64,000 nt of DNA from Mytilus trossulus (Eukaryota): assembly GCF_036588685.1 (NCBI RefSeq), contig NC_086381.1, positions 53,320,001 to 53,384,000 on the forward strand, in the 5' to 3' direction. Each line of letters begins with the position of its first letter. Position 1 is the first letter of the stretch. Of this stretch, positions 11,020-39,176 are shown piece by piece. The position numbers were made by a program, and so were the translations under genes. A model generated the notes under the pieces. The model saw only the letters and a list, made by a program, of their open reading frames with translations. It was not told the origin of the DNA and searched no databases.

Positions 11020-11130
11020 AACTGATTTTCATAGTTCGTTTTTATGTTGTACTGTTGTACCACTGTCCCAGGTTAGGGGGAGGGTTGGGATCCCGCTTAC
11101 CGTGTTTAACCCCGCCACATTATTTATGTA
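11020..11130 (+). repeat. 5' part of dispersed repeat family B (host of both LINE insertions)
   Basis: Colinear with the uninterrupted copy at ~39425-39800; continues at 19559-19567 and 25831-26066. Confidence 0.85.
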
Positions 11131-11158
11131 CTTCCAGTGAGTAGGAAGTTCACGAGAT

Positions 11159-11168
11159 AACATGGCGG
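11159..11168 (+). promoter_or_regulatory. YY1-type motif AACATGGCGG near the LINE-A 5' end (candidate internal Pol II promoter)
   Basis: Matches AANATGGCGG ~30 bp inside the element, after an ACTTCC/GGAAGT hairpin. Confidence 0.4.
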
Positions 11169-11561
11169 ACTGATTTTCACTGCACAGAAAGAAGACAATA
11201 TTATTGAGTTTCCTAAGTGTTGCACTCCACTTAAATCAAAAACAATTGTCTATATTGAGCACGATAGTAACGTTCACGTTTGAACTTAAATTTAATTTAT
11301 TTAAATCGATTTTTAGAAACAATATTGACATTTTCTGATCGATTGAATTTCCCGCCTTATTACGCGGGTCATTTGAGTTCACTTTTCAAGTCTTCCGTCC
11401 ATTGCTAGCTCATTTTTATTATTTTATATTTGCAATTCGTATTTAAATGTTATTTAACTAAAAAACTAAACCCTGCCAAGGCCCAAATTTTCTTGGAATC
11501 TTGTAGCCGGCTGTTCCTGATAGTACCACCCCCCCTCTTTTGTCAACAATATCGAATCTAT

Positions 11562-12317
11562 ATGTCCGAGACAAAGCTAACAAAATATCTCAGAACACAT
11601 AACTTTGTGCCTCCAACAGGACAAACAAGACGGCGCCCTGTCATTTTATCTGACAGCAAAGGATTTTCATTACGAAACAATATCATAAGTCCATTTGACC
11701 AAAATATTATATGGTGGTGCAAGCAAGGTGTGACAATTGAGCAAAGTTTTGCCTGGCTCAAAAGAAATCTTCCCACTAAATTATATGAAATTGGAGACAT
11801 TGCTCTATATGTCTGGCTTGGTACATGTAATCTGACAACCAAAGAAAAATCCTCAAAATACATATCTATTACAACTGATAATTCTGATACTGTTGACAAA
11901 GTTATCTCCTGTATTGATGACATCAAGAACTATATACAAGATTTTCCACAAGTCAAACTTATTTTCCTTGAAGTACCAGTATACTCAATAAAAGCTTACA
12001 ATCAACATCAAAAACACTCCGACCCGAAAACTTTCAAGCAACAAGACGAAACACTTGCAAATCAAGTCTGGCAAGTAAATGAGAAAATAAGAGCTACAAA
12101 CCAAATCTTAAATACACGCTCACCTAATTTTTCACTTTTCCTACAAGCCCGCAAACAACACCGTACACGGTCAAGAGTCGAAGCCTGGGAATACTTCAAT
12201 TACAACCTGTACAGGGACGGGATCCATCCTGGCCAGAATCTAGCAAAAGTTTGGTTACGTGAAATAGCAGAAAGAATAAAAATTGATTGCTGGAGCAAAT
12301 CTGAAGTTAAATCCTAA
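11562..12317 (+). CDS. LINE-A ORF0: SGNH/GDSL-type esterase (~251 aa; first ATG at 11562, frame open from 11430)
   Basis: Block I ILSDS, block II KQG, block III WLGTCN, block V DGIHP. Confidence 0.8.
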   Translation: MSETKLTKYLRTHNFVPPTGQTRRRPVILSDSKGFSLRNNIISPFDQNIIWWCKQGVTIEQSFAWLKRNLPTKLYEIGDIALYVWLGTCNLTTKEKSSKYISITTDNSDTVDKVISCIDDIKNYIQDFPQVKLIFLEVPVYSIKAYNQHQKHSDPKTFKQQDETLANQVWQVNEKIRATNQILNTRSPNFSLFLQARKQHRTRSRVEAWEYFNYNLYRDGIHPGQNLAKVWLREIAERIKIDCWSKSEVKS

Positions 12318-12338
12318 ATTCTTATACTTATATTTAAC

Positions 12339-12815
12339 AGATACAGGTCAGTCTGCATGGGATGCCAAGCTAACTAGGTTCTGTATCTAAAACTGGAACA
12401 ACATACACAACAGCAATAGTACATTGTTTGTATATAAAAACCTTGTCCGTCAGATAGAATACCAACATATAACTGAAATTTAACATCTATAATATTTTTA
12501 CTCTTCTCACAACAAAAAGTTTATTATACAGACTGCATGGGATGCCAAGCTAACTGCTATTATAAACTTTAGAATATGATAAATTCTAATAGAATTTAAG
12601 AAAATAAAATTAGTAAAACCAGCCTCAAAGACACATAAATAAGTATATTAATCCGTAGCTTCAAATTCAATAGTCATACATATAACAAATATAGACCAGT
12701 CTGCATGGGATGCCAAGCTAACTGATTCTGTACCTAAAACACCTTCGTAAGAGCTTATTATCCTCTCAACAAATAGTTTTGATACAGACTGCATGGGATA
12801 CCAAGCTATCTGTCA
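12339..12815 (+). ncRNA. Four structured hairpins (core CTGCATGGGATRCCAAGCTA) in the ORF0-ORF1 spacer
   Basis: Cores at 12353, 12533, 12701 and 12789, each with a different but self-complementary basal stem. Confidence 0.8.
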
Positions 12816-12889
12816 TAATAAACATTAAATATACAACCAATTTATAGACAAAGAAATAAATAAATAAAAGATACAATAACTTTATCAAC

Positions 12890-15394
12890 ATGGGCTCCAG
12901 GGAAATAACAAGGCCTACAAGAACTAGACACCCTCCCATGACATACACACCAAGTGTAACTCGATCACATGGGAATAAGCATATGTCCTACAGGCTAAAT
13001 GCCAAGAAGGCACTAGATAAGAAAATTGATGCAACAGACAGGGATCACTCCTGTGATATGGAATTTAAAGATGGTACACTAGTCATAACATGCAATGCAG
13101 GAGCTTATGAAATCTTGAAATCCTCCATATATAAATATTACGACCAATCTGAAGATAGAACATATAGGCTACACACCAAAACAAGCAAGTCAAGTCTACC
13201 AGATGTCAGCAAACAACCAATGATAGTTGAGGAATCATTATCTGTCAAAAATAGAGATCCATCCTTGTCTAGTCGTCAGCTATTTAGAATAAACATGTTC
13301 AACACCACATGTAGAATCGATGCTAACGGATATATGGTACAAACATTTATTCAAGAAGACCTCGATAAAATATGCGAAGAACTATTGGTCAATAAATCAT
13401 ACTCTGAGCTAAATAACAAAATCAAGCAAATGTGTAAGCTCACTAAAGACCAAATAAATAATCCAAAAAAGGGGCAAGCTAAATCCATCTTATCAGCTAA
13501 GCCCATACTCAACAAAACTGTGCAAACCAATACTTCCACAGGTAACAGTGATAAGGACAAGAAAACGTGTGTTATTAAACAGCATTCTCACCATATAGTT
13601 CAAACACAAGTTGAGCTAAATGATTATAACCAAGATAGTCATAACCATCAACCAAAAACAACACATAGATTAATGACCACCAATGATAAAGATCTATGCG
13701 ACTCTAGCCCTACACGTATAAACAGTCATTATAACTCAATTACTAGTCTAAATGATGAACTTATTGACTCTGAGTTACACACACTTTCTCGTGAAGGCGA
13801 AGAAACAACAGATGAAATCTGCATAGTATGTGGATCTGCTATTATAGATGAAAATAATGTAGAATGTACAATATGTGGACAATGGCTGCATACTGTTTGC
13901 GAAGGAATATCCGAAAACTCGCTCAATAACCATACAGCCTACGTATGCTCGTCATGCAGAATCCTAGACGATACAATTCCATATGACGAATCACTGCATA
14001 ATGAAATGATCCAACAAAGGGATGAAACCCATCCAAAACAGCTAGTATATAAAGCAAAGAGTCAACAGGATACTGACGCTATAAAAATATGCCATACAAC
14101 TGAAGCTGAAGCAGAAAAATCTGATCCATGCCTACCTGTTCTACCAGAATCAGCAGTTAAAGAAGATCTTACCAAAAATAATATACATATTCCACCTATT
14201 GAAGTGAAAACCAAACCAAAGCGAACAAAAAAGAAGGACAATCTAGAACAAACTCATCTTGAATTACAACTGGCTGAAAGTCAAACAAAAATCAGCAATC
14301 TTCAAACAGTCAATCAGGAATATAGACAAACAATTGACTTACTATCATCAAAATTAGGCATACAATCTCCATTAGACAACAACAGCCAACTTCCATTTAA
14401 CCAACAAATCCATCAGCTTGAAGTGAAATTTGAAGGGCAAATTAATAAAATGAAACTGGAGTTTGAGCATCAACTTAACATCATATCCATTCAAATGAAA
14501 CACAATACAGAAATCAATGAGCTGAAATGTAAACTTCATCATATGGAAAATGAATGTAAACAACATAAATCTACCATAAGTGGAAATCAACAACCACCTA
14601 GTCAATCTCCACAGATGAATACTCAATTCACTCCATTTCCAAGATGTCAGAATGGGAACTCAAATCAACAAACTCAACAACCACTAAACCATCCACATAC
14701 ACCTGGGCTACAGTGGACAAGACCTCCAATATGGACTAAACCACCACAATACCAAGCACCTATTGGACAGGATAGACCACAGAATGAGAACTTTCCTCAA
14801 CAGGCACTAAACAATCCACAGATACCTGGTGTACAATATACAAGACCTCCAATGTGGACTAGACCACAACCCTATCAAACACCTATGGGATTGGTATTCG
14901 CCCCATATGCTCCTCATATGCAACAACAAAAAACACACATAAGCTATGATACAAGGCATAAAAATGTTCAACCACCTCGCCAAAGAGTAAATACCGAAAC
15001 GCAAGGACAAAAACGGTCCAGAATGCAAAGAAATCATCAAAAACTGGCGAAAACCACTAACACCAATAGTGAACAAGTTTACAAGCAACAAACTCTCCAT
15101 CAAGTGCAAGAAAATCAGGAGCCAAACCAAAATTCTCATCAAAATCTGGTACAAACTCCAGAATCAAATCAGGCTAACACCCAAATAAGGGATGGACATG
15201 TATATACAGAACATGATATGGACACATCTCATAGTACATGTAAACCAGATATTCCACCGTCTAGAAGTAAATTACATCATAGAAGTATTTCGGAACCAGC
15301 CTTAAATAATGAACAAATAAACTCAAACAAGCCTTTTTTAGGAGCAGGCAGAGCCTCATCAGTAAACTGGACAATAAACCACATGAATTTATAA
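12890..15394 (+). CDS. LINE-A ORF1: conserved N-terminal domain, PHD finger, coiled coil, Q/P/N-rich tail (834 aa)
   Basis: CIVC...CTICGQWLHTVC...CSSC (C4HC3); N-terminal similarity to LINE-B ORF1. Confidence 0.88.
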   Translation: MGSREITRPTRTRHPPMTYTPSVTRSHGNKHMSYRLNAKKALDKKIDATDRDHSCDMEFKDGTLVITCNAGAYEILKSSIYKYYDQSEDRTYRLHTKTSKSSLPDVSKQPMIVEESLSVKNRDPSLSSRQLFRINMFNTTCRIDANGYMVQTFIQEDLDKICEELLVNKSYSELNNKIKQMCKLTKDQINNPKKGQAKSILSAKPILNKTVQTNTSTGNSDKDKKTCVIKQHSHHIVQTQVELNDYNQDSHNHQPKTTHRLMTTNDKDLCDSSPTRINSHYNSITSLNDELIDSELHTLSREGEETTDEICIVCGSAIIDENNVECTICGQWLHTVCEGISENSLNNHTAYVCSSCRILDDTIPYDESLHNEMIQQRDETHPKQLVYKAKSQQDTDAIKICHTTEAEAEKSDPCLPVLPESAVKEDLTKNNIHIPPIEVKTKPKRTKKKDNLEQTHLELQLAESQTKISNLQTVNQEYRQTIDLLSSKLGIQSPLDNNSQLPFNQQIHQLEVKFEGQINKMKLEFEHQLNIISIQMKHNTEINELKCKLHHMENECKQHKSTISGNQQPPSQSPQMNTQFTPFPRCQNGNSNQQTQQPLNHPHTPGLQWTRPPIWTKPPQYQAPIGQDRPQNENFPQQALNNPQIPGVQYTRPPMWTRPQPYQTPMGLVFAPYAPHMQQQKTHISYDTRHKNVQPPRQRVNTETQGQKRSRMQRNHQKLAKTTNTNSEQVYKQQTLHQVQENQEPNQNSHQNLVQTPESNQANTQIRDGHVYTEHDMDTSHSTCKPDIPPSRSKLHHRSISEPALNNEQINSNKPFLGAGRASSVNWTINHMNL

Positions 15395-18300
15395 TAGGAA
15401 CCATCAATATTCAAAATATAAAAGGCAACACCCTGTATCTTAATTCAATCCTGGATACAGTGCAAATTCTATGTATACAAGAACATTGGCTGCTATCTTT
15501 GGAAAAAAATATAGCAATAGAAATAAATAAAAAATTCTCGTCAAATATCAAATCAGTGGATGACGAAAACCCACTAATAGACTTTAAATCTATCCGTGGC
15601 TACGGAGGAACAGCAATTCTGTGGCAGAAAGATCTAAACAACACAGTTAATATAATGCCGGATGGGAATTCTCGTATTCAAGTGATAACAATAAACAGCA
15701 GTCCAATTGCAACATGCTTAATTAATACCTATATGCCATCTGCACAGAGTAGTGGGGACATTGAATATAAAGATACACTAGATCAAATCTCCGAAATTAT
15801 GGATAAGTATAGAGAAACATACCAGATAATTTTATGTGGTGATATGAATGCGTCTTTACATCGTGACAATAGGAAACGGGACACCGTCTTTGGAGAATTC
15901 AAAAACATAAACAATCTCCATATACCAGATGGTTATCCAATAAAGCCAACCTTTTTTCATCACAATGGCAAATATACCTCACAAATTGACTATTTCTTGT
16001 TTGATGAAAGAATTATACAGCAATCAAATCCAAATGTGAAAATAGCTATGAGGCATCCTACAAATACCTCTGATCATACTCTAGTCACTGCAAATATGGC
16101 TCTAAAGGTTAAAAGATGTTCTCTACGACCTGTCAAAATATATACAAGGCCAAACTGGAGAAAATGCGACAAAAGCCTCTACAAGTCAACTATTGAAAGT
16201 AGTCTAGACAATACATCTGGAGAAAAGAAATTCTCGGGTACCGTAGAATCACGTATACAAAAATTGGAATTAACACTTCATAAAGCTGGTACAAAATCTA
16301 TTCCGAGCTACAGGAAGCTGAAAAAACTAAAATCTGTTGGGAAAGGCATATGGAATAGCAAAATTAGCCAAGCATCTAAAGAAGCAAAGTCTGCACATAG
16401 GAACTGGATAGATAAAACCAACAAAAATGAGGATGCAGATCAAGAAAAGCTGGCTCTCAAAAACAAAAAACGTCATCTGAGACAACTACAGAGACAGGCA
16501 CATGCATCAAAGAAGGAAAAGTTCATAAATGAAATCATGCAAGCTTCAGAAAAAGACAGCAAAACATTCCATAAATTAATAAAGCAACAACGATCTAATC
16601 ATTCATCAAATACTGACGTTCTTTACATTGGAAATGAGAAATTTGAAGGAGAAAGTATTCTAAAAGCATGGACAATACATTTCGAAAAACTCGGAACACC
16701 AAATCATGACAAAAATATCTTTGACCTGGAACGCTTCCACTTGGCTAAATTACAAAATGACATCATTTTTGAAAATCAACATTCCAAAAAAGAAATTAAA
16801 CAAGCAACACCTGAAGTAGTTAAAAGTGCAATTAAGAACCTAAGCACTGGCAAAACATCAGACGAAAATGGTATATGTTCTGAACATTACAAATATGCTG
16901 TAGATGAATTATCAGAAGAAATCGCAAGCATAATCAATGATATTTTCTCCGATTTGGATGTTCCAAAAAATCTAAAAAATGGTTTATTAACACCTGTTCT
17001 TAAAAAGAAGAAGGATAAAACCGTACCTGGAAATTACAGGGGAATTGTTGTAACAAGTATCTTTTCTAAAATCTTTGAATCAATCGTTAAAGGAAGGCTA
17101 GAATATGAGCTACTACCATCGCAAAATCCATTACAGAGAGGGTTTACAGAGGGCGCATCAAGCCTCTTTGCAGCCTTTATTACAACTGAAACTATTCTAA
17201 TATATCGTCTTCTTCAAATATTATTAGAACTTGTTGCACTGGATGCAGAAAAGGCATTTGACACCCTGAGTCATGAGATCATGTTAAATAAGCTTTATCA
17301 TGATGGAATTGAGGGAGATATGTGGATCCTACTACGGAACATCTATCAAGATCTGTCTCTCAAAATCAAGTGGAATAATGAAACATCAGAAAGTATTAAT
17401 ATCATGCAAGGGGTTCGTCAAGGAGCAAAATTATCATCTCTGCTATACAAGCGATACAATAATACCATTCTGAATGCAATATCCAGTAGTAATCTAGGCG
17501 CAAAAATAGGCAACATACAAGTAGGCTCTCCTACATGTGCGGACGATATTGCCTTACTGGGTGAGCGGTCAGATTTACAGGCAATGCTCAATATTATAGA
17601 CTTCCACACTAAAAGAGACATGGTTAAAATTAATCCAGACAAATCAGAGATAATGTGCGTATCCAAAGGATTAAAGCAACAAACGCATTCATACAGCTTC
17701 AATGGAAAAGAAATAAAAAGAGTAGAAAAGCTGAAGCATCTAGGTATCACCAGGGCAACAAATGGCAAAGTCAACTTGGACGAAAGGCTAAAAACTGGCC
17801 GGCAAACTATATATGCCTTGCTAGGTTCTGGCCTACATGCCAGAACAGGAATGTCACTGCTGGTACTTAAAAAGATCTGGAAAACATATGTTGTCCCCCG
17901 CTATCTTTATGGGCTCGAAGTACAAATATGCATGAAAAAGGATGTATCTGAACTAGAAAAGTTACAGAGGAAAATGTTCAAACAATTTCAATGTCTACCA
18001 GATAGGACTGCATCTGCAGCAGTATATATACTAATAGGAGCTGAACCCATTGAATCGGTACTGGACAAAAACATGCTAGCCTTATTTCTTTCAATTTCTC
18101 GCCTAGATGGCTCAATAGAACATCAAATCCTAGAATGGGAACTAGAAATCAGCACAGAATTTGACAATTCCTTCATCTGTCGTATAAGCAAAATTTTACA
18201 AAAATATCAACTCCCAACAGCAGAAGAAATTATGAAAAATCCTCCATCAAAATATATTTGGAAAAAACAACTTCAAAAAGCCATAAATGATTACTGGTCT

Positions 18301-18816
18301 TCAATTTGGACAGAAGAATGTAATACAAAACCAACACTCAAACATTTATCGTTGCAAAATAATCCGGTAAATAATCCGCATAACATTTGGAAATGTGTTC
18401 GAAATAATCAATATGACATCAAAAAAGCGGAATTGAAATGTAAGCTAGTAACTGGTACATACATGCTTCAAAGTATAAAAGCAAAATTCAGTAAAAATAT
18501 AGTACTGCCTGACTGTAAGCTATGTAAGGACAATGATGAAACCCTTGAACATTTTCTCCTGGAATGTACTAGGCTCGGTGATGTACGACAAAAATGCATG
18601 GCGAAGCTAGTCAACAAGCTAAGAGAGATAGAAGGGGGTGGTACAATCGACGTCAGTAATGATGAAATACTGATAGAAATTATACTGGATTGTTCTAAGA
18701 CAAATATACTGAATAATCAGCCAATGGACAAGCTACTGGATATAGAAAGGCAAACACAAGATCTTTGCTACCAGTTACATATAAAGCGAACAAAACTTTT
18801 ATGTGACATCAAGTAA
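15313..18816 (+). CDS. LINE-A ORF2: AP endonuclease + reverse transcriptase + C-terminal CCHC (no AUG upstream of the endonuclease)
   Basis: GTINIQN, QEHWL, GDMN, IDY, SDH (APE); NYRGI, DAEKAFD, GVRQG, PTCADD (RT); CKLC...HFLLEC. Frame open from 15313. Confidence 0.95.
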   Translation, partial: TNKLKQAFFRSRQSLISKLDNKPHEFIIGTINIQNIKGNTLYLNSILDTVQILCIQEHWLLSLEKNIAIEINKKFSSNIKSVDDENPLIDFKSIRGYGGTAILWQKDLNNTVNIMPDGNSRIQVITINSSPIATCLINTYMPSAQSSGDIEYKDTLDQISEIMDKYRETYQIILCGDMNASLHRDNRKRDTVFGEFKNINNLHIPDGYPIKPTFFHHNGKYTSQIDYFLFDERIIQQSNPNVKIAMRHPTNTSDHTLVTANMALKVKRCSLRPVKIYTRPNWRKCDKSLYKSTIESSLDNTSGEKKFSGTVESRIQKLELTLHKAGTKSIPSYRKLKKLKSVGKGIWNSKISQASKEAKSAHRNWIDKTNKNEDADQEKLALKNKKRHLRQLQRQAHASKKEKFINEIMQASEKDSKTFHKLIKQQRSNHSSNTDVLYIGNEKFEGESILKAWTIHFEKLGTPNHDKNIFDLERFHLAKLQNDIIFENQHSKKEIKQATPEVVKSAIKNLSTGKTSDENGICSEHYKYAVDELSEEIASIINDIFSDLDVPKNLKNGLLTPVLKKKKDKTVPGNYRGIVVTSIFSKIFESIVKGRLEYELLPSQNPLQRGFTEGASSLFAAFITTETILIYRLLQILLELVALDAEKAFDTLSHEIMLNKLYHDGIEGDMWILLRNIYQDLSLKIKWNNETSESINIMQGVRQGAKLSSLLYKRYNNTILNAISSSNLGAKIGNIQVGSPTCADDIALLGERSDLQAMLNIIDFHTKRDMVKINPDKSEIMCVSKGLKQQTHSYSFNGKEIKRVEKLKHLGITRATNGKVNLDERLKTGRQTIYALLGSGLHARTGMSLLVLKKIWKTYVVPRYLYGLEVQICMKKDVSELEKLQRKMFKQFQCLPDRTASAAVYILIGAEPIESVLDKNMLALFLSISRLDGSIEHQILEWELEISTEFDNSFICRISKILQKYQLPTAEEIMKNPPSKYIWKKQLQKAINDYWSSIWTEECNTKPTLKHLSLQNNPVNNPHNIWKCVRNNQYDIKKAELKCKLVTGTYMLQSIKAKFSKNIVLPDCKLCKDNDETLEHFLLECTRLGDVRQKCMAKLVNKLREIEGGGTIDVSNDEILIEIILDCSKTNILNNQPMDKLLDIERQTQDLCYQLHIKRTKLLCDIK

Positions 18817-18971
18817 AAGAAATGTATGAAGGCTCTAATTATTTTAGATTTTAACTTTTATAAATCTAAAGTATATATTTAAATACTGAAATAGCAAATA
18901 AGTCTTACTAAAATGTTCTAGATTTTAACTATTAACGTTTTCAAGTAATATAACACCGAAATCGTAAATAT

Positions 18972-19100
18972 ATGGTGTGTACTGTCTGCATGGGATGCCA
19001 AGCTAACTAGTACACTCTATAATATCTTCAAATCAAGAGCAATATCCAATATAGTCTGTACAGTCTGCATGGGATGCCAAGCTAACTTGTATCAGTCTAT
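18972..19100 (+). ncRNA. Two more copies of the same hairpin in the LINE-A 3' UTR
   Basis: Cores at 18986 and 19065; stems GTGTACT/AGTACAC and ATAG.CTGTACA/TGTA.CAG.CTAT. Confidence 0.8.
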
Positions 19101-19968
19101 CAAGAAGTGCGTGATTTATACTTTTTAATGATAGCCTAGGCAGGGCACTTATAGTTTTATTAAATAAGCTGTAAATAACATTTTTATCATAATATAGTGG
19201 TGAACGCTATTGCCGCAATAGTTCTGTGTACATTTCTTATCGTGATATAGTATTTGCAACTTGTGCTGTGTACATTTTTATTGTGATACAAGTGGTGAAC
19301 GTTAGCTGCATACATTTTTACCGTGATATCGTGTTGATTCTTATTACCGCAATTGTGATGTGTACATAATATTTTTAACTTATTATCGTCGTAATATTTT
19401 AAGACTTTTAAAATATTTCTTTTAGTCGTACATATTTTAATGTAAATATAAAGATATCCGCAATCTCGGTGTGTAAATTAAATTGCTCATCCGATAAGTG
19501 GAGTGCTCCGATTAAACGGAGGTGAATACCTGTACAGAACAGAACAGAACAGAACTGATGTGCCTGTTTTTTGTTTGGTGGTTGAAGGTGGTGGTTGTGT
19601 AATTTATTGAGAGCCAGTTTTACAGATTTTACAGATTTTTACAGACTTGATAGTGTTTTAATGTGAACTTTTATTTCCTGTATTGCCAATGAGAACCCTG
19701 AATGATGTTTTAGCAAAGTGAAAATACATTTACTGCCATTTCTCGAAAGAAAATGAGATACACGAGACAAAGAAATAGCCGATTCATAGTCGGCATCTTG
19801 GTTTTATGAAGAAATTTTAAAGAAGTTTTTAATTAACAGTCCTTTTACCTTTTAAACATAGAACACTTTTAATATATAGTGAACAGTTTTAAGAAAGACA
19901 ATTGTTTTATTTAAACATTTTTTCCAAATCACTGTTTTTGAGTAGATACAACCAACAGTAAATTCAAA

Positions 19969-22050
19969 ATGTCGAGAAGGTCAAGTAGAGAATTAGTTCC
20001 AACTAAAATATATACACCCAGCAAGAGTATTCAAACTACTAAGAATTATGTATTAAATGAGAAAAGAACTTTGAATAAAATTAAGGAAGCTGCAAATAGA
20101 GACATTGATATTCAAGCAACTTTGAAAAGGGGGAATTTAATCATACAGTTTTCATCGGCTGCATTTTTGCAATTCAATACATGCTTCGACCAGTATTTTA
20201 GCTCAAACCAAAGTTTAAAACTAACAGTACATGAAAGGTTCGATTTATCAAAGAAATTATCTGAGAGGTCAATTTCATTTGCTGACGTTAGTAATCCGTC
20301 AAAGCAACTATATAGGGTGAACATTTTTAATACAACATGTCGTATTGAAGTGAATGGGAAACAATTTATGTCATTCATAGATGAATTTTCTAAAATTGCA
20401 TCGCATATGAGTAATGATGTAGACTATAAACATCTCAACACCAAAATTAAAGAGCAATGTGATTTTTTATTATCGTCAATTAATAACGGTCATAATCCGT
20501 CAGTTGTAGTGGATAATACAAAGATTAGTCAATCTAAAGCTGTTACAAATGCTGCCGCTGGTAGTAATGACATTAAGGACCCTAAAGTATGCCCTAAATG
20601 TACTAGAAATTGCTTATCTAGAAGTGTCTGGTGTAATAGGGGTGAACATTGGATACACTATAATTGCGAAAAACTAAAAAGTGAAATGATTAACATTTTA
20701 GAGAATAATTCTGATACAAACCATTATATATGTTCAATTTGTGATATAGACTCCATAGATGATAAGCAAGTATTATCTGTGAATTCTCCCACTCATACTC
20801 AAGTATGTGATAGTATCAACTTACCTTTGGTCAACATGATTAATGAAGAATCTTTTTTAGAAGGAAATGGAATAGAATCCGATACTTCAGTAGAACATAT
20901 AGATAAAGATCAAGTAATACCCAAAGTAACTTTTGCTCAATCTCTTTTATTGGAGGAATTTCCAAGGTCTTGTGCCTTATGTTTAGAGTTGTTAAATACT
21001 GATGAACAAATTTGTGAATTCTGTGATCAATCTTATCACATAAAATGTATGGGAAAAGAAAATAAAATATGTCTAGGATGTGAAGCAACACATAGTCAAA
21101 ATTCTGAAAATTTGCATTTGAATATTGAAACTTCAGTAAAGAAGGTTAATTCACCTCGTCCAACTTTAGTCTGTGTAGACAAAAACATTACTGATAAATC
21201 TAAAGAAAATCAAGATAAGGATAATGAAAATAGTGTGTTGAAACAGAAAGAATTGCGTCAATTAGAACTAAAATTAAAGAAAAAAGAAGAAAGTCTGAAA
21301 TTAAAAGAGTTGTCAGTGAATGAAAAACTTAAAGAGAAAACCAAGCTTCTTGATTATCTTCACCAAATTGAAGCCCGAAATTTAGAGTTAGAACAAACCA
21401 TAAAAACAATGAATAGGAAAATTATTATATTGGAAGAAAATCAAAATAACTCTTCCCTGCGTAATGAAAAATCAGAATCTGGAAATTTAAATAGTCATAG
21501 GGATAATAGTGAAGATTTACTGGTACAAGTAAGGAATAAAGTCACAAAATTTATTGTGGACAAGATTGAAAATGAATTGGATAAATTATCTGACAATATT
21601 ACTGAAAGCAATGATAAATTAAAGGATACACAAAATCATGTTTATCAACAAAATGTGAAAGATAACTCAGAAAATCAATATTCTCAACATAATTGGGATT
21701 ACCAAAATTATTATCATCAATATCCATATTATTATGATCATCACAACTCATATTATATAAATAATTATGGAACTGTAAATGAGAGTCATAGTGATTCAGA
21801 AAGTAGATGTGATTATGAAAATCAATGGTTTCAAGATACGTCTCCGGACAATACTCAAACTGTTACTCATTCGAATCTTATTGATGTATTAGCGTCAGAC
21901 AACCAAGTAAGGACAAATTGTGATTCACAAAGTAATCAACCTAGGGACTATTTGGGACAAAATTTATATTTCCAAAGTAATAACATTGCCAAAACTTTAC
22001 ATGGAAATAATTTTTTATGGAAAACAAGCCTCAGTGTCCAACCGACATAA
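19969..22050 (+). CDS. LINE-B ORF1: N-terminal domain, two PHD-like fingers, coiled coil, Y/H/N/Q-rich tail (693 aa)
   Basis: CPKC...HWIHYNC...CSIC and CALC...CEFCDQSYHIKC...CLGC. Confidence 0.88.
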   Translation: MSRRSSRELVPTKIYTPSKSIQTTKNYVLNEKRTLNKIKEAANRDIDIQATLKRGNLIIQFSSAAFLQFNTCFDQYFSSNQSLKLTVHERFDLSKKLSERSISFADVSNPSKQLYRVNIFNTTCRIEVNGKQFMSFIDEFSKIASHMSNDVDYKHLNTKIKEQCDFLLSSINNGHNPSVVVDNTKISQSKAVTNAAAGSNDIKDPKVCPKCTRNCLSRSVWCNRGEHWIHYNCEKLKSEMINILENNSDTNHYICSICDIDSIDDKQVLSVNSPTHTQVCDSINLPLVNMINEESFLEGNGIESDTSVEHIDKDQVIPKVTFAQSLLLEEFPRSCALCLELLNTDEQICEFCDQSYHIKCMGKENKICLGCEATHSQNSENLHLNIETSVKKVNSPRPTLVCVDKNITDKSKENQDKDNENSVLKQKELRQLELKLKKKEESLKLKELSVNEKLKEKTKLLDYLHQIEARNLELEQTIKTMNRKIIILEENQNNSSLRNEKSESGNLNSHRDNSEDLLVQVRNKVTKFIVDKIENELDKLSDNITESNDKLKDTQNHVYQQNVKDNSENQYSQHNWDYQNYYHQYPYYYDHHNSYYINNYGTVNESHSDSESRCDYENQWFQDTSPDNTQTVTHSNLIDVLASDNQVRTNCDSQSNQPRDYLGQNLYFQSNNIAKTLHGNNFLWKTSLSVQPT

Positions 22051-25000
22051 TGGAACAATTAAATCATGAAAGTAGAGAGGATGATAAAAAGAAAGAACTT
22101 AATATTTTAACTTTTAATTGTAAAAATATACAAACATGCGGTATGTTTTTTGATGAACTTTTTAAATCAACAGATATATTTTTAATTCAAGAACATTGGC
22201 TGTTTAATTTTCAACTGAATTTACTTAATGAACTTCATCAAAATATTTGTGGAATTGGAAAAGCGGTCGATGATAAAGATCCAATAAATCCAACCAATTT
22301 ACCTCGTGGTTATGGGGGAACAGGAATTTTATGGAGAAAAGACCTTGACAATTTTATTAATCCGTTAGATATTGGAAACGATAGAATTTGCTGTGTTGAA
22401 CTTTTAGGATCTTCAAAGCTACTCCTAGTATCTGTTTATTTACCATGTAAAGGAACACCATCTGATTCATTAGAATTTTATAACTGTATAGACCAACTAC
22501 ATGAAATCGTTCAAAGTTATAGCGACTCTCACTCTATTATAATTGGTGGCGATTTTAACGAAAATATTTTAAGTAAAATAGATACGAGAAGAAACAAATA
22601 TTTAGTAGACTTTTTGAATGAAAATAGTTTATATACTGAAGAAAATGGTATTACTTTTGTAAATTGTAGTGGTAAAGGAACTTCAACTATTGACTTTTTA
22701 CTTTTTAAACAAGATTTTAAAGAGAATGTGATCAGTATGGAAACAATGGACAATGTAGCTACTAACGTGTCTGATCATTTTCCTGTTAAAGCAAAATTGA
22801 AATATATCATCAATGCTAAAGAAAAACTGAAATGTTCAAATTCAAATATTCTACCCTCTGGAAAAACTCCATGGAAAAAAATAGATAAAGACGCATATAA
22901 AACTTTAGTTGAAAATGGATTAGATAATTTTTCATCATCTTTAGAAAATAAATATGAAGTGGATATTGCTTTTCAAAATATGAACAGTTTGCTCTTCAAT
23001 TCAGCAAAAAGTTGTTGTCCAACTCCTCGAAAAAGATATAGAAAACCAAAATTAAAAGTAATGAATGAAGATATTTCTGGCGCAATTGCAATGAAAAAAA
23101 AGGCTTTTTATCAATGGAAGATTAATGGGCGGTCGGAAGATCCAAGGAATGAACTTTATATTCAGAAAAAAGAGACAACTTATAATTTACGTAAACACTG
23201 TCGCAAGGCAGTTGCGATGAATAGAATCGATGAAAGAGAAAAAATAATGGAAGCAAATATCAAAAACAAAAATTCATTTTATAGACTTATTAAAAAACAG
23301 AGGGGAAGATTAAGTAATCATATAGATGAACTATCTGCAGGAGACACAGTGTATAGTACAGAAAACAACATTTTAAGTGGATGGAAACATCATTTTGAAA
23401 ATTTAACAAAAAATTCTATTCATGAACATTTTGATAACAAATATCAACAAAAGATCGAACAAGAATATATTGATATAATTGACATTTGTAGAGCTATGTT
23501 TCAGCACCAAAGTATTACTGAAAATGAAATAGTAGAAGCTTTGAAGTTATTAAATTTAAATAAATCACCAGATATATTTGGAGTTTCAACTGAAAACTTA
23601 TTATATGGAGGACAATCTCTTATTTATCACCTTAAAGAACTCTTGGATAGTACTTTTAGACTTTGTTATATACCAGACGAACAGAAATTAGGGATAGTAA
23701 TTCCGCTCTTTAAGAATAAAGGAAGTTGTAAAGACAGTAAAAATTATCGTGGAATAACAATTACTCCAACATTATCCAAACTCATTGAGGCTGTTTTAAA
23801 GATCAGAATTAATCCTGACATTATAAAATATCAAAATCCATTACAACGTGGCTTTACCAAAAGAACAGCACCATTAAACTGCTCTTTTATTATAGAAGAA
23901 TATCACAAGGAATGTATCGAGTTAAATGATCAAATAATAATAACTATGCTTGATGCAAAATCTGCATTCGATGCTGTTAAACATGCTGGGCTTATCAGAA
24001 GATTATATCAAATGAAAATTCCGGAACAATCAATTTTAATTATTGATAATCTATATAAAAATGCTGTTTCTTGTGTTAAATGGAATAATCAAATATCGGA
24101 CACTTTTAGAATAGAACAAGGCGTAAGACAAGGAGGGACTCTTAGTGCAGACTTGTACAAAATCTATATAAATACACTTTTAGACATTTTAGCTGATTCA
24201 GGATATGGAGGCAAAATTGGATCTATTTCTTGTTGTGCTCCTACTTGCGCAGATGATTTAGCCATTCTTAGTAACTGTCCGTATGAAACGCAAATTTTAA
24301 TTGATATGGCCTTTGATTTTAGTAAACGTGAGGCATACTTACTACAACCAGCAAAAAGTTGTGTTATACAGTCTAAATCACGTCACCATGAGAAAGTAAA
24401 TGAAAATTTTTGGAATTTAGGCAATTCTGTTCTTCCAACTTCTAATAAAGCAACACATATAGGAATATGTCGTACAGACGATGATTCATGTAAAGCAACA
24501 ATAGATGAGAATTTAAAGAAAGCAAGAAGGACACTATATAGTTTAATGGGGGTTGGACTTTATGGCGAAAATGGACTAGATCCACAAACTTCAATGTCAA
24601 TAATGAATACTTGTATTATACCGATAATGTTTTATGGATTGGAAATAGTAATCCCTAGAGGAAGATGTTTAGAAACTTTAAATATCCAATTTAAGAAGTT
24701 CTTGAAACAATTGTTATCTTTACCAAAAACAGTAGCAGATCCTGCTATATATATGATTTCTGGGATGTTACCTGTAGAAGCTCAAATAGATGTAAAAATT
24801 CTAACTTTTTATGGAAATATTACTAGACAAGGAAAAAATTCTATTGAATGGCAACTAGCGGAAAGGCAATTAAATGTTAAATCTATTAATAGTAATAGTT
24901 GGTTTAGTTTACTGAGGAAAATATTTTTGAAATATGAACTTAATGATCCTGCACAATACTTAGTTAATCCAATTAGTAAATACCAATGGAAAAGGGAAAT

Positions 25001-25568
25001 AACTTCCAAAGTTCAAAAATTCTGGATTGAGAAGATACTGAATCAAGCAAAACTTTATACCAGTTTAAGATACTTATCGTTGATATATAAACCAGGACAA
25101 TGTCATCCTATTGCAAATACAAATACTATGAATTCAAGGGAAATTATTAGAATTCCTACAAAATTGAAAATAGCTACTGGGAGTTACATTCTGCAAACAG
25201 TTAGAGCCAAGTTTAAAAGTAATACAGAACTGTCTATATGCAAACTGTGTAATGAAACAGAAGAAACTTTACCACATTTCTTATTAACGTGTAAAAGTTT
25301 AGAAGATATCAGAAAACCAATTTTGGAAGATTTAATTAATTCCTGTAGTGAAGAACTAGCTGCTTTTAATATGAAAGGTGAACATTTTGACATTTTACAA
25401 CTGATCATAGATCCCTTTAATTACATGACAATGTTAAGAAATGAAAAAGTTTTTAAAGTGATACAGAACATTATAGATCCAAAATGTAGGCGATTATGTT
25501 ACAATCTCCATTGTGAAAGATATAGACTGTTGCAATTAGATGATATAAAGAAAAAGAAAAGAAAGTAA
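22011..25568 (+). CDS. LINE-B ORF2: AP endonuclease + reverse transcriptase + CCHC (ATGs at 22017 and 22050; frame opens at 22011)
   Basis: TFNCKN, QEHWL, GDFN, IDF, SDH; NYRGI, DAKSAFD, GVRQG, PTCADD; CKLC...HFLLTC. Confidence 0.95.
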   Translation, partial: FFMENKPQCPTDIMEQLNHESREDDKKKELNILTFNCKNIQTCGMFFDELFKSTDIFLIQEHWLFNFQLNLLNELHQNICGIGKAVDDKDPINPTNLPRGYGGTGILWRKDLDNFINPLDIGNDRICCVELLGSSKLLLVSVYLPCKGTPSDSLEFYNCIDQLHEIVQSYSDSHSIIIGGDFNENILSKIDTRRNKYLVDFLNENSLYTEENGITFVNCSGKGTSTIDFLLFKQDFKENVISMETMDNVATNVSDHFPVKAKLKYIINAKEKLKCSNSNILPSGKTPWKKIDKDAYKTLVENGLDNFSSSLENKYEVDIAFQNMNSLLFNSAKSCCPTPRKRYRKPKLKVMNEDISGAIAMKKKAFYQWKINGRSEDPRNELYIQKKETTYNLRKHCRKAVAMNRIDEREKIMEANIKNKNSFYRLIKKQRGRLSNHIDELSAGDTVYSTENNILSGWKHHFENLTKNSIHEHFDNKYQQKIEQEYIDIIDICRAMFQHQSITENEIVEALKLLNLNKSPDIFGVSTENLLYGGQSLIYHLKELLDSTFRLCYIPDEQKLGIVIPLFKNKGSCKDSKNYRGITITPTLSKLIEAVLKIRINPDIIKYQNPLQRGFTKRTAPLNCSFIIEEYHKECIELNDQIIITMLDAKSAFDAVKHAGLIRRLYQMKIPEQSILIIDNLYKNAVSCVKWNNQISDTFRIEQGVRQGGTLSADLYKIYINTLLDILADSGYGGKIGSISCCAPTCADDLAILSNCPYETQILIDMAFDFSKREAYLLQPAKSCVIQSKSRHHEKVNENFWNLGNSVLPTSNKATHIGICRTDDDSCKATIDENLKKARRTLYSLMGVGLYGENGLDPQTSMSIMNTCIIPIMFYGLEIVIPRGRCLETLNIQFKKFLKQLLSLPKTVADPAIYMISGMLPVEAQIDVKILTFYGNITRQGKNSIEWQLAERQLNVKSINSNSWFSLLRKIFLKYELNDPAQYLVNPISKYQWKREITSKVQKFWIEKILNQAKLYTSLRYLSLIYKPGQCHPIANTNTMNSREIIRIPTKLKIATGSYILQTVRAKFKSNTELSICKLCNETEETLPHFLLTCKSLEDIRKPILEDLINSCSEELAAFNMKGEHFDILQLIIDPFNYMTMLRNEKVFKVIQNIIDPKCRRLCYNLHCERYRLLQLDDIKKKKRK

Positions 25569-25830: not shown

Positions 25831-26066
25831 TTCCAAGTCAGGAACCTGTTATTTAGTGGTTGTCGTTGGTTTTTGTGTTACATATTTGTTTTTCGTTCAT
25901 TTTTTGACATAAATAAGGCCGTTAGTTTTCTCGCTTGAATTGTTTTACATTGTATTATCGGGGCCTTTTATAGCTGACTACATGCGGTATGGGCTTTGCT
26001 CATTGTTGAAGGCCGTACGGTGACCTATAATTGTTAATGTTTGTGTCATTTTGATCTTTTGTGGAT
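25831..26066 (+). repeat. 3' part of repeat family B resuming after LINE-B
   Basis: TCCAAGTCAGGAACCTG... colinear with 39541-39780. Confidence 0.85.
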
Positions 26067-28868: not shown

Positions 28869-30105
28869 TCATTTTATACTGCTGATCTTTTTAAAATATT
28901 TTATTTGCCTTATACGATCTAATATCAAAGCTTTTTTGTGGCATTTTCCTGCTTCAGTCATATCACCTATCATATAGCACCCAATACCTAATAGAGTATA
29001 ACACTCTGCTTTCATGACGTTATTTCCTATATAGTTATTGCTTTCAATGCATGTTTTCATTTCATTTAAAGACGCTAAACATTTTTGCATCTCTTCTAAC
29101 TTAAGTAAACACACAAAACGTAAAAATAATGTATAAACAATAGGGGGTTTCTGGATATATCCCTTGTGTTCTACTTCAGGTCTCATTTCGTCAGGAATTA
29201 AAAACGAGTTACGGGAAAAATCGCTCGGCTCCATTGTATAAGCTATATATATTGAGTTTAAATCGGTATCTTGAGTTTGATTCGCTAAATTGTCGATGGT
29301 AAATTTATCTTCACTGTAATACAGTTTCTCTTGTTGATCGTCCTGAAACTTCGATAACACGTAGTCAGCGATTGCAACAGAAACTGAATATTTTCTAATG
29401 CAATAATAGTAAGAAGCTAAGACATTCCACCCGGATACTCCATCACTACGTACTCCCATTAATACAAAGGGTAACATCTCTTTTAAACGTTGATAATGAA
29501 GTTTATTACCCCCGCGCGTGACATTCTGATAAGTAAAACGAGTACCAATGTTTCGACACAACGTACTGAATAAACACTTGAAAATAAATCGGTCGTGATT
29601 TCGTTTGAGCAGGTCAAAACTATTAACCAACACTTGCCAAGGCATAAGTTTGTTTGTAAGGACGGCTTGGCCGCATATAAGCAAAAATCTCACTTCATTA
29701 AGCTTTGAGAGATTTGCAGAACATTTGGAATGGCCAATCACATCCGCTTCTGTAAATATAGGTGACATGTTTTGTGATATGATTTCATATTGAGGAGAAC
29801 AGAAAAAATCAGACATGAAACTTGAAAAAGCAAGACATGCAGAGTAATTTTTATACAACTCAACTATTGTTGTTTTCAAATTCCTCCATTCTGGTAAAGT
29901 GATTCTTTGTTCAAGCACATTCCTTTCTTTTATAAAATAATGCGGCAAGATATGATGTTGAACATAGTATTCAAGTCGCTTGAGTCATTCCGAAAAACAG
30001 TTCTCAAAATTGTGCGGTGTGTATTCTGTAACAGCAACTTCTTCTGAAATCCAGAACACAACTGTTTAAAAAAAATACGAACAAAGAAGTTCTTTTAGAT
30101 TGAAT
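28869..30105 (-). pseudogene. 5'-truncated Mab-21/cGAS-like paralog (C-terminal half only)
   Basis: Highly similar to 37880-39110; in-frame stops at 29985-29987 and 30066-30068; catalytic N-terminus absent. Confidence 0.88.
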
Positions 30106-35139: not shown

Positions 35140-37130
35140 AGGTATAAATAAATTGCTTCGCTGAGCGCAGGTGGATACGACCGCAGATGTCCAACCCTGG
35201 AAAATTTGGTATAATATGGACACAATATTCACGCTTGTAACTGAAATTGACACATACTTTGATTAAATAACTGCAGTCAATGAACTTTAGAATGGTTATA
35301 TCATTTTTTTTTTACTTTTGTGCAATACCCTATGCTGTTGCGAATTGACCCCCCACTACTCCTCCCCAACCACCCCCCCCCCCCCCCAAAACAATAATTT
35401 TAGCCAGTTTTTTGTTGATGTGCAATACAATATGCTGTTGAATATTAAACCCCAAGAAGAAGACATTTCTTTTAATTTCTGAAATCTGAAATGAGAAATG
35501 AGGAAATACCCTCAAGATATAGTCAGTTTTTCAATTCAAATTTCTAATGGAGTTTGTAACTATAATTACCCATTTAAGAACATCATTTAAAAGTTTTAAA
35601 ATATAAAATAACATACATAATCATGGTTAAAATTAAATTCCTTTTTTTGCCCTTAATTACGAAATGGTTTGAGACATAACCACCCCCACCCCAAGTCAAT
35701 CATTACCATCCCTTTGTAGTATGGAACCTTGTGGTATAGTTTCAGAAAAATTCATGCACTTTAACACAGGTTATTGTCTGGAAACTAACAAATGTTTAAT
35801 TGGGCCCCATTTTTGGCCCCTAATACTTAAACAATTGGGACCATAACCCCCAAAATCAATCCCAACCTTCCTTAAGTGGTTATAAAATTTGTGTTGATAT
35901 TTTATTGATTTCCATCTTCTTATACTAAAGTTATCATCCCGGGAAACCATCTGTCTTCAGACGACGCTGACGACGACGACGACGATAACGTGATACGATA
36001 TTGAATATATGACAAAACAATATTTATCTTATAGTTAACAGTTTAAAGATCATTTAAAAAATAGTATTACTTGGCATTTTCAGGAATTGCTTGCATTAAC
36101 TAAGTGAATCAGTGAATTAAACGTAATTCCTAAATTTAAGTAATTACCTGGAAGTCGTCAATACACATATTTACTGTAACATATACACTAAAAGAGATAT
36201 TGAATCTAATCAGAAAACAATAAGACCTCTCTTTAGATCTTTAGTTAATAGAACAGACATCTGATGATTAACTTTTCACAATATGTTCTATTACAGAATG
36301 TAGACGCTTGCCCAGTCGACACAAAACTCGTCCTTTTTTTAGTTCATGCTATTCCTACAGGTTTTTGTTTTGTTTTATATAAATATGTATTACCTTGATT
36401 TTTCTCTTCTGGAAATCAGAGAAACCAACGTCGATTAAATACTATCTAAAATTATCTACCTTTGTGTGAAGCTCTATTGATTGTATTTTAAGACTCAATC
36501 AATTAACAAAAAAGTGAAAATCATGATATATCACAGTTCATTATACCCTTTATGCAGTATAAGTATTGTAATTAAAAGAGTTGATTTTGAATTTTGCCTA
36601 TAGTACAATTGAAATTCAAACATAAAAAAAAGTTTGTTCTTATATTACATGTAAAAATGTATAATGTTACACCAATCTTACAGTAAGGGGAGGGTTTGCA
36701 CATTAAAACTTGTTAACCCCATCCATAAGTGTTATGTGCCTGTAGTTCAGTGGTTTTCGTTGGTTCATTTTGTCATGTTTGTTTTTTGTAAATTGTTTTG
36801 TTATAAATAAGGCCCTTAGTTTTCTCATTTGAAACATAACGAGTTTATATATTCTACTTTTACATTAGTCACAAATTTATACAGTGATAAAATTGTTAAT
36901 CTCTATTTAAAACAAGATGTGGTTTGATTGCCAATGATAAAAATGTTCATATGAATTTTAGTGGATGTAAGCATTTATAGGGCTTCAACAATTAGAAATA
37001 TCCACACTGTTTAGTAGGCTATAAAAGGTCCCACTATGAATAAAGTATGAAACATTAAGTCTCTAATGGTAAATAATGTCACCTTACTGTTTTTCTTTTC
37101 TTTTTCAGTTCAAAAATCCTGACCGAAAGT

Positions 37131-39176
37131 ATGGAAAAACGCTCATTACGATTATATAATTTTCTAAGTGACAAACTTGGAACCGAAGATATAGTGAAAA
37201 CAAGACGAAGTTATTATATAACACACAATTATTTGACCAAAAGTAAAACACACACACCGTTTTTCTGTGGAAGTAGAGCAGAAGATCTTGATATGAAGGG
37301 CAGTGACACGGACACAGTTATTTTACTTAATGATATACATATTGTTGAAGATGTCACCAATACTTACGATTCTAATACATTTGTCATGAAGACTTGTGAT
37401 ACCAGACCTGGTTTTACACAGTTAGAGTTGTGCAGTAGTTACGAATATACAGATGTGTGGTGTAAGAAAATCGGACATAAATTCTATCTTTCAAGCAGTA
37501 AAATGAAGCAGATATTAGTTTCTTTGAACGAAAATAATGAAATATGTACACTTAACACTCTACATGGACCATGTGTTTCTACAGCCAACGAAACACATGA
37601 CTGCACTGCAGGTGTAAAGTGCCAATCATTCATTAAACAAGCACAGGAATGGGTAGGAAGAAAACGTTGTTGGCCAACGGAAGCATTAAAAAGGATAATT
37701 ATTGATAGTGGGGTATGGTTTGTCCCAATAGGCTACAAGTTGTCGCCAAATGAAGATATAGAATGGCGAGTCGCGTTTGGTATCGCTGAAAAACTGCTTG
37801 TCTATTCTTTTAGTCATACTCAGCTTTTGGTTTATGCTCTTTTGAAAATAATTTTAAAAGACGTGATTGAACAAAATCTTAAACTAAAAGATCTTCTATG
37901 TTCGTATTTTTTAAAAACAGTTGTTTTCTGGATTTCAGAAGAAATTGCTGTTACAGTATGGACACCGCACAATTTTGAGAAATGTTTTTCGGAATGCCTT
38001 AAGCGACTTGGATACTATGTTAAACATGATATCTTGCCGCATTATTTTATAAAAGAAAGGAATGTGCTTGAACAAAGAATCAATTTAGCAGAATGGATGA
38101 ATTTGAAAACAACAATAGTTGAGTTGCATAAATATTTCCCTGCATGTCTTGCTTCTTCAAGTTACATGTCTGAATTTTCCCGTTCTCTGCAATATGAAAT
38201 TGTATCACAAAACATGTCACCTAGATTAAGTGAAACGGATGTGGTTGGACATTCCAACTGTTCTGCAAATCTCGCCAAGCTTAATGAAGTCAGATTTTTG
38301 CTTCTATGTGGTCAAGCCGTTCTTACAAATAAACTTATGCCTTGGCAAGTGTTGGTTAATAGTTTTGGGCTGCTCAAACGAAATCACGACCGATTTATTT
38401 TCAAGTGTTTATTCAGTACGTTGTGTCGTAATATTGGTACTCGTTTTACCTATGAGAATGTCACACGCGGGGGTAATAAACTACATTATCAACGTTTAAA
38501 AGAGATGTTACCCTTTGTATTAATGGGAGTACGTAGTGATGGAGTATCCGGGTGGAATGTCTTAGCTTCTTACTTTTATTGCATTAGAAAATATTCAGTT
38601 TGTGTAACAATCACTGACTACGTGTTATCGAAGTTTCAGGACGATCAACAAGAGAAACTGTATTACAGTGAAGATAAGTTCACCATCGACAATTTAGGGA
38701 ATGAAAGTCAAGATACCAATTTAAACTCAATATACATAGCTAATACAATGGAGCCGAACGATTTTTCTCGTAACTCGTTTTTAATTCCTGATGAAATGAG
38801 ACCTGAAGTAGAACACAAGGGATATATCCAGAAACCTCCGATTGTTTATACATTATTTTTACGTTTTATGTGTTTACTTAAGTTAAAGCAGACACACAAA
38901 TGTTCAGAGTCTTTAAATGATCTCAAAATATACATTGAAAGCAATAACTATATTGGAAATCACGTCATGAAAGCAGAGTGTTACACACTACTTGGTATTG
39001 CTTTCTATCTGAAAGGTGACCTGACAGAAGCAGGAAATTGTCACAAAAAAGCTTTGGCATTAGATTATTTAAAGCAAATTAAATATTTAAAAATGATCCA
39101 CAAAATACAAAAACAATATGAAGAAATGAAAACAAATCATTGTACTGTTCAAGAAGAAACAGTTCAAATTTCGTAG
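37131..39176 (+). CDS. Mab-21/cGAS-like receptor (cGLR) nucleotidyltransferase with C-terminal helical/TPR-like region (681 aa, single coding exon)
   Basis: GSRAEDL...GSDTD motif, HGPC, EWRVAF..AEK.L, CSYFLKTVVFW, LPHYFI; splice acceptor at 37107-37108 just upstream of the ATG. Confidence 0.9.
   Translation: MEKRSLRLYNFLSDKLGTEDIVKTRRSYYITHNYLTKSKTHTPFFCGSRAEDLDMKGSDTDTVILLNDIHIVEDVTNTYDSNTFVMKTCDTRPGFTQLELCSSYEYTDVWCKKIGHKFYLSSSKMKQILVSLNENNEICTLNTLHGPCVSTANETHDCTAGVKCQSFIKQAQEWVGRKRCWPTEALKRIIIDSGVWFVPIGYKLSPNEDIEWRVAFGIAEKLLVYSFSHTQLLVYALLKIILKDVIEQNLKLKDLLCSYFLKTVVFWISEEIAVTVWTPHNFEKCFSECLKRLGYYVKHDILPHYFIKERNVLEQRINLAEWMNLKTTIVELHKYFPACLASSSYMSEFSRSLQYEIVSQNMSPRLSETDVVGHSNCSANLAKLNEVRFLLLCGQAVLTNKLMPWQVLVNSFGLLKRNHDRFIFKCLFSTLCRNIGTRFTYENVTRGGNKLHYQRLKEMLPFVLMGVRSDGVSGWNVLASYFYCIRKYSVCVTITDYVLSKFQDDQQEKLYYSEDKFTIDNLGNESQDTNLNSIYIANTMEPNDFSRNSFLIPDEMRPEVEHKGYIQKPPIVYTLFLRFMCLLKLKQTHKCSESLNDLKIYIESNNYIGNHVMKAECYTLLGIAFYLKGDLTEAGNCHKKALALDYLKQIKYLKMIHKIQKQYEEMKTNHCTVQEETVQIS

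Follow-up and report, generated by a model that had tools for sequence, protein, structure and literature searches.

How does a LINE produce its endonuclease and reverse transcriptase when the ORF that encodes them has no AUG ahead of the first domain? How LINE ORF2 protein (ORF2p) is made has been examined for a small number of elements, the usual answer being reinitiation. The question was raised by element A, an APE-RT LINE in a 64 000 nt stretch of the Mytilus trossulus genome (NC_086381.1, forward strand), the whole of which is referred to here as the window and supplies all coordinates given below. Element A encodes an APE endonuclease and a reverse transcriptase (RT), ends in a 3′ repeat tail and has dispersed and 5′-truncated copies, identifying it as a LINE. 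One copy on another contig (L111) aligned to window positions 11147–19555 and displayed flanks different from those of element A. The layout of the element is as follows.

Positions 11147 to 19555, forward strand: element A, the complete APE-RT LINE with its three ORFs (8417 nt aligned with L111 at 99.6 %; the 5′ end possibly up to ~18 nt further left).
Positions 11562 to 12317, forward strand: ORF0, likely SGNH/GDSL esterase-like, a conserved upstream ORF of the clade (ESM Atlas, tblastn).
Positions 12890 to 15394, forward strand: ORF1, 834 aa, with a PHD finger (PF00628, E 9.4e-06) and a stop at codon +18 past the heptamer described below.
Positions 15313 to 18816, forward strand: ORF2 frame, encoding APE endonuclease, RT and a C-terminal zinc motif (ORF list, Pfam).
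Positions 19535 to 19555, forward strand: 3′ tail, (CAGAA)n (sequence; tail also in L110 and L111).

The ORF1 frame was open over 12860–15394 and shared 82 nt with the ORF2 frame (15313–18816), which is −1 relative to it. An earlier, sequence-only reading of the locus had held that the ORF2 frame from 15313 encodes the endonuclease N-terminal motif with no AUG ahead of it, and this was borne out: the motif FIIGTINIQN starts at 15388, the first endonuclease Asn is at 15406 and the first in-frame AUG is at 15655, 83 codons beyond that first invariant Asn. Residues N8, Q32-E33-H34, D59, G72 and G75, invariant in 35/35 aligned endonucleases, all precede 15655, and because a start there skips them this AUG cannot give an intact endonuclease. 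The same reading had placed U-UUU-UUA at 15334–15340 in the ORF1 frame and had assigned ORF2 to the −1 frame; the sequence does contain TTTTTTA at this position, parsed ccT TTT TTA in ORF1 phase.

Positions 15334 to 15340, forward strand: slippery heptamer U_UUU_UUA in ORF1 phase, the likely −1 shift site (sequence; 56/69 pooled families).

The junction thus has the attributes of a −1 frameshift site, in that ORF2 occupies the −1 frame, is open from the heptamer onwards and has no conserved start of its own. From comparative sequence evidence, we consider it very probable that element A and its clade produce ORF2p by programmed −1 ribosomal frameshifting at U_UUU_UUA, giving a predicted ORF1–ORF2 fusion. 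Most ribosomes would complete ORF1p, whilst a minority would slip −1 at the heptamer, presumably by tandem tRNA slippage, to yield a fusion of about 1975 aa by codon count at a probably low ratio to ORF1p.

A single heptamer is no evidence alone, because the count of TTTTTTA in the whole window sits at chance level (93 observed vs 91 expected). Conservation carries the argument. All four copies of element A that reach the junction kept the heptamer and had no AUG, the fifth being 5′-truncated below the heptamer; hence neither a copy with an in-frame AUG nor one without the heptamer, which the sequence-only reading had named as evidence against its proposal, was found among these four. Comparison of element A with its sister family showed similarity beginning at the heptamer and nothing alignable just upstream. 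The own-genome set comprised 131 loci from two endonuclease queries and one DNA query, many being the same place found twice; 126 contained the endonuclease start and the five without it were dropped. Merging five broken B copies and removing L066 (no candidate) and L075 (duplicate) reduced 46 clusters to 39 families. TTTTTTA was present within 450 nt before the endonuclease motif in 29/39 families, against 0.22 expected, with the neighbouring element B among the 29, and all 29 heptamers were in slip phase and within the open ORF2 leader; the background in the coding sense strands of these A-rich elements was 17 in 147 610 nt. Among 32 families with intact ORF1, all 26 Phe-Leu families used TTT TTA, preceded by T in 25, whilst in ORF1 overall TTT accounts for 65 % of Phe codons and TTA for 27 % of Leu codons. 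Site and phase are therefore conserved beyond amino-acid need.

A held-out set from metagenome contigs comprised 72 loci, of which 47 had the endonuclease start and 46 were analysed, giving 39 families, two of them already in the own genome. The heptamer was in phase in 30/39, replaced by variants in five, out of phase in two broken copies and absent from two. For pooling, L120, L122 and L130 were left out as broken, leaving 36 own-genome families, and 33 metagenome families were retained after removal of L224 and L193, which duplicate own-genome families, L210, whose upstream sequence was too short, the degenerate L243, and the out-of-phase L189 and L252. In the resulting 69 families, with a median pairwise endonuclease identity of 35 %, U_UUU_UUA was found in 56, and in all 13 variants the A-site triplet was still UUU (C_CCU_UUU, A_AAU_UUU, U_CCU_UUU, U_UUU_UUU and others). 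Over both sets, L066, L210 and L243 had no usable site, and the site was out of phase in L189 and L252. Family counts are not independent because the families are related, and all four deep tree branches carried the site (a quick tree and FastTree, the latter without four short rows). LINEs of other clades displayed an in-frame AUG before the endonuclease in 14/14 cases and no heptamer (14 of 20 fetched loci used; motif mislocated in L175). Independent of these DNA sets, a full HMMER search of a 1.8-billion-protein library with ORF1 gave 8948 matches; among the best 150 of 8948, 75 of 91 homologues longer than 600 aa had Phe-Leu in the last 140 residues vs 13 % expected, with the proviso that the profile includes C-terminal columns and may favour FL. 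A screen of viral contigs gave 139 pattern matches, none of them a relative. These comparisons confirmed the heptamer, as a sequence feature of the junction, to be a clade-wide trait; the earlier suggestion to check its conservation across the family was thus answered by retention of both heptamer and phase in copies of A and in diverged families, which supports the programmed −1 shift that the same reading had proposed. Two branches had features of their own: L085, L113, L116, L128 and L241 carry X_XXU_UUU in place of U_UUU_UUA, then an Arg CGN codon, and the metagenome branch of L195, L201, L207, L221, L227, L228, L232, L236 and L245 has Thr-Asn-His at codons +6 to +8.

Termination–reinitiation or leaky initiation would instead assign ORF2 a start codon of its own, the heptamer being otherwise employed. 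Element A has one candidate.

Positions 15367 to 15369, forward strand: ORF2-frame CUG, flanked by A at −3 and G at +4, the rival start for element A (sequence).

Further candidates are found in the neighbouring element B, whose heptamer, like this CUG and the upstream ORF0, went unremarked in the sequence-only reading.

Positions 19969 to 22050, forward strand: element B ORF1, with its TAA stop (22048–22050) exactly 30 nt past the heptamer and overlapping an ORF2-frame AUG.
Positions 22011 to 22017, forward strand: U_UUU_UUA heptamer of element B, in ORF1 phase and immediately 3′ of a −1-frame TAA (sequence).
Positions 22011 to 25568, forward strand: ORF2 frame of element B (APE-RT), whose first position coincides with that of the heptamer, with AUGs at 22017 and 22050 (ORF list).

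Given the good-context CUG in A and the two in-frame AUGs in B, one at 22017 and one within a UAAUG overlap at 22048–22052, reinitiation could act in these elements too, and the position of ORF1 behind ORF0 already calls for reinitiation or an internal start of some kind. Reinitiation is also the accepted route for SART1 and human L1 (PMC2881922; here and below, a citation covers the relevant passage of the source). These elements resemble the clade in that ORF2 depends on ORF1 translation, but they make a separate ORF2p by reinitiation or coupling, whereas the clade of element A has no conserved start codon. The SART1-type UAAUG overlap is absent from element A, and B alone had it among the junctions inspected. 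Across the 69 pooled families, an in-frame AUG before the endonuclease was absent from 51; 28 had no AUG, CUG, GUG, UUG or ACG there, 47 had none in good context, and no start-codon position was conserved. AUG was no more frequent than in the +1 frame (18 vs 21 families), and a NUG near the offset of the CUG of element A occurred in few families only. Stops in the −1 frame were common just 5′ of the heptamer (112/1035 codons) and adjoined it in five families; their complete lack downstream is partly by construction. The ORF1 stop lay 30 to 378 nt beyond the heptamer, which also argues against reinitiation, and such a route leaves the heptamer, its phase and the fixed −1 relation unexplained. 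We therefore regard initiation at the CUG of A (15367) or the AUG and UAAUG of B as an unlikely account of ORF2.

RNA processing offers a second way of joining the frames. A canonical splice acceptor is a pyrimidine run followed by AG, and a G directly 3′ of the heptamer in 44/56 families creates the acceptor-like sequence UUUUUUAG, from which ORF2 might be translated in a spliced mRNA using an upstream AUG. Yet the nearest AG is more than 6 nt from the heptamer in 12/69 families, and splicing gives no reason for a phase locked to the codons of ORF1. Spliced genomic copies would be expected under LINE cis-preference; a spliced ORF2 mRNA had been named in the sequence-only reading as evidence against frameshifting, and 0/85 copy comparisons broke at the AG past the heptamer. 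One contig ran unbroken over 15169–18445, and among the joints listed for four contig runs none fell at the junction, with the caveat that the RNA status of these runs is guessed and that contigs drop rare forms. Taken together, splicing appears decidedly improbable.

Overlapping protein constraint, without any slippage, might also preserve the site, through a need for Phe-Leu at the ORF1p C-terminus and for Phe-Phe in ORF2p. Downstream ORF1-frame residues do look constrained, Arg codons of the G-R-A class vary synonymously and third positions are the least conserved. Variants nevertheless swap FL for PF, NF, LF or FF with slip ability retained, and dual coding is impossible in the five families with an abutting −1 stop, because that stop bars an ORF2 start upstream of the heptamer. 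It is hard to credit as the explanation, and the same low standing applies to slippage of RNA polymerase on the T run, which would add a U and join the frames at the RNA level. Individual genomic copies whose run is longer (L122) or shorter (L077, L120) by one T are compatible with the latter, and may equally be mutation or homopolymer error; the extra T of L122 puts ORF1 and ORF2 locally into one frame. The runs comprise only 4–7 T, which is short for transcriptional slippage, no run indel was present among the contig rows listed, and slippage by the polymerase would select neither the phase nor X_XXY_YYZ variants.

Ribosomal −1 frameshifting thus remained the preferred reading, and we examined the region 3′ of the heptamer for its stimulator. 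The sequence-only reading had likened the site to HIV gag-pol and noted a weak AGGC/GCCT hairpin: heptamer, phase and frame agree with that model, but no RNA stimulator structure of the retroviral kind, expected 5–9 nt downstream, was found, and the hairpin, although present, was not more stable than shuffled sequences (−6.3 kcal/mol, z 0.08). Local folding, a model that takes in neither pseudoknots nor long-range pairs, revealed no structure above shuffles in A, B or the 69 families (mean z 0.13; 3/69 below −2, like the control region), and the 3 bp GGC/GCC stem was broken in several G-R-A families. The stimulator is accordingly probably neither a stem-loop nor a pseudoknot.

A positional register was evident instead. 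The ORF1 frame contained no stop at codons +1 to +10 (0/690 codons), whereas the first stop fell exactly at +11 in 18/69 families. Pro-Pro started at +9 in 15/69, three families having both it and the +11 stop, and 30/69 had either a stop at +11 or Pro-Pro at +9/+10, including element B (stop at +11) and excluding element A. The stop class underwent eight changes on the tree, at least five of them forced, and register classes clustered on the tree. Among the best 150 of 8948 ORF1 homologues, those with FL ended at +11 in 27/75 cases and had Pro-Pro at +9 in 16/75. Pro-Pro pauses ribosomes, and both stop and Pro-Pro would place the A site of a slow ribosome at +11, a register that is the spacing of a disome. 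The likeliest stimulator would be a leading ribosome that halts while reading ORF1, its A site holding codon +11 (either a stop or the codon that follows Pro-Pro); the ribosome behind it would then be stacked over the heptamer and be prompted to slip −1. That collision with a ribosome paused 11 codons past the UUA stimulates shifting is a tentative proposal, to which we give somewhat less than even weight. It draws on the relatives of element A, including B, because element A, whose own sub-branch is FL-x-x-G-R-A, has the GCC motif described below and not the +11 register (ORF1 stop at +18, no Pro-Pro).

Published systems bear on this proposal from both sides. Reporter experiments in Escherichia coli showed more −1 shifting by a trailing ribosome when the one ahead was stalled at a stop, with a peak at a 9-codon spacer (PMC6815119); the spacer in the LINE clade is 10 codons. 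Mouse disomes occupy two stacking states one codon apart (59–60 and 62–63 nt), and liver disome sites had no association with prolines (PMC7397865). High ribosome load lowered shifting in IS3 (PMC6815119), and in SARS-CoV-2 the stop position influences shifting by a different route (PMC8168617). For Salmonella ugtL, a similar collision model has been proposed for +1 shifting (bioRxiv 10.1101/2024.09.11.612453). The E. coli reporters (PMC6815119) and ugtL share with the clade a slippery site one ribosome length 5′ of a stop or Pro-stop pause and no RNA structure; these precedents are, however, bacterial and either synthetic −1 or single-gene +1, whereas the LINE case is eukaryotic, one codon longer, clade-conserved and predicted. 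If true, eukaryotes would possess a natural −1 frameshift that is programmed by collision and conserved in evolution, and ORF2p output would depend on eIF5A, on the speed of termination and on ribosome load. Collision-driven recoding has so far been demonstrated mainly in bacterial reporters, and dozens of natural variants sharing one downstream register would form an allelic series for its study in eukaryotes.

A second downstream feature was shared more widely and included element A.

Positions 15353 to 15357, forward strand: GCCUC motif at +13, a candidate RNA-level signal (GCC at +11/+12/+13 across families).

GCC started at nucleotide +11, +12 or +13 in 38/69 families vs 3.4 % of control windows, and therefore in three codon phases. 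It is a candidate RNA-level signal that may contribute to shifting. In PRRSV, protein-transactivated shifting involves CCCANCUCC 11 nt 3′ of the site (PMC5009743); both systems have a short unstructured motif ~11 nt downstream, that of the LINE clade being GCC(U) in 38/69 families.

Among the closest known parallels is HIV-1 gag-pol (PMC5009743), which has the same heptamer and phase, and a structural ORF followed by an RT-bearing −1 ORF. Unlike HIV-1, element A is a non-LTR element with an APE endonuclease, has no downstream stem-loop and has no protease domain by Pfam; since none was found, the predicted fusion would remain a single protein unless cleaved by a host protease. With a clade-wide slip site of retroviral type, ORF1 and ORF2 would be joined covalently in a polyprotein, the two proteins would be made in a fixed ratio, and ORF2 starts in these LINE families would be mis-annotated. 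Frameshifting has been stated for other non-LTR elements. Dictyostelium TRE5-A and TRE3-A are APE-type LINEs said to need a −1 frameshift for ORF2 (PMC5911963), but are of a different lineage and neither a shift site nor a test is named in that passage, in contrast to one heptamer over dozens of families in the clade of element A. Drosophila HeT-A is likewise said to need a frameshift (PMC5009743), though there the shift is inside gag and no RT is encoded.

We tentatively label element A as Proto2 (RTE group), on a by-eye match of sequence signatures. Three bivalve RTs labelled Proto2 (PMC10294476) had the QRGF, KAFD and PTCADD signatures of A and B by eye, whereas two Proto2 reference rows were without them, and that source reports Proto2/RTE-X discordance. 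The word 'frameshift' has no occurrence in its main text. Our literature search, with subscription papers and Repbase entries outside its scope, found no description of the heptamer or register in the clade, and the cited passages of PMC4120745, PMC5753468, PMC1965478 and PMC5006619 added nothing on the ORF1–ORF2 junction; an earlier remark on frameshifting in the clade is possible, for example in those Repbase entries or subscription papers.

The clade layout comprises three ORFs, a separate esterase-like ORF0 followed by ORF1 and ORF2. Pfam and PDB searches gave no match for ORF0, whilst comparison with GDSL clusters in ESM Atlas gave feature matches of 0.93–0.94 and a Pfam share of about 30 %, so that an SGNH/GDSL esterase-like identity is likely. 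Matches to ORF0 by tblastn were found 5′ of ORF1 in many relatives, with weaker matches in the other-clade LINEs L172 and L176. A ~20 nt repeat is present in four copies between ORF0 and ORF1 (12355, 12535, 12703, 12791) and two in the 3′ UTR (18988, 19067) of element A, and in L111 too; it could bear on ORF1 translation after ORF0. The only named ORF1 homologue was from Mytilus coruscus (63 %; word-indexed protein search, two proteins returned). A 6 nt polymorphism near 15150 may explain a contig break in that area.

With respect to the wider window, three long host ORFs at 37077–39176 (forward), 52274–54493 (reverse) and 28869–29984 (reverse) are paralogous; two match Mab-21_C and, weakly, TPR, and the third, without a Pfam match, is similar by eye. 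An unrelated high-copy LINE, L163, displayed a SART1-style TAATG stop-start junction. Elements A and B lie in tandem within one high-copy host repeat (window 11100–11146 and 25833–25900), as contigs connect 11127–11130 to 25833–25876, and two other copies of element A have flanks unlike those in the window. Family B (22011–25568, L043–L056) includes many copies of 99–100 % identity with intact 1185-codon frames and is therefore young.
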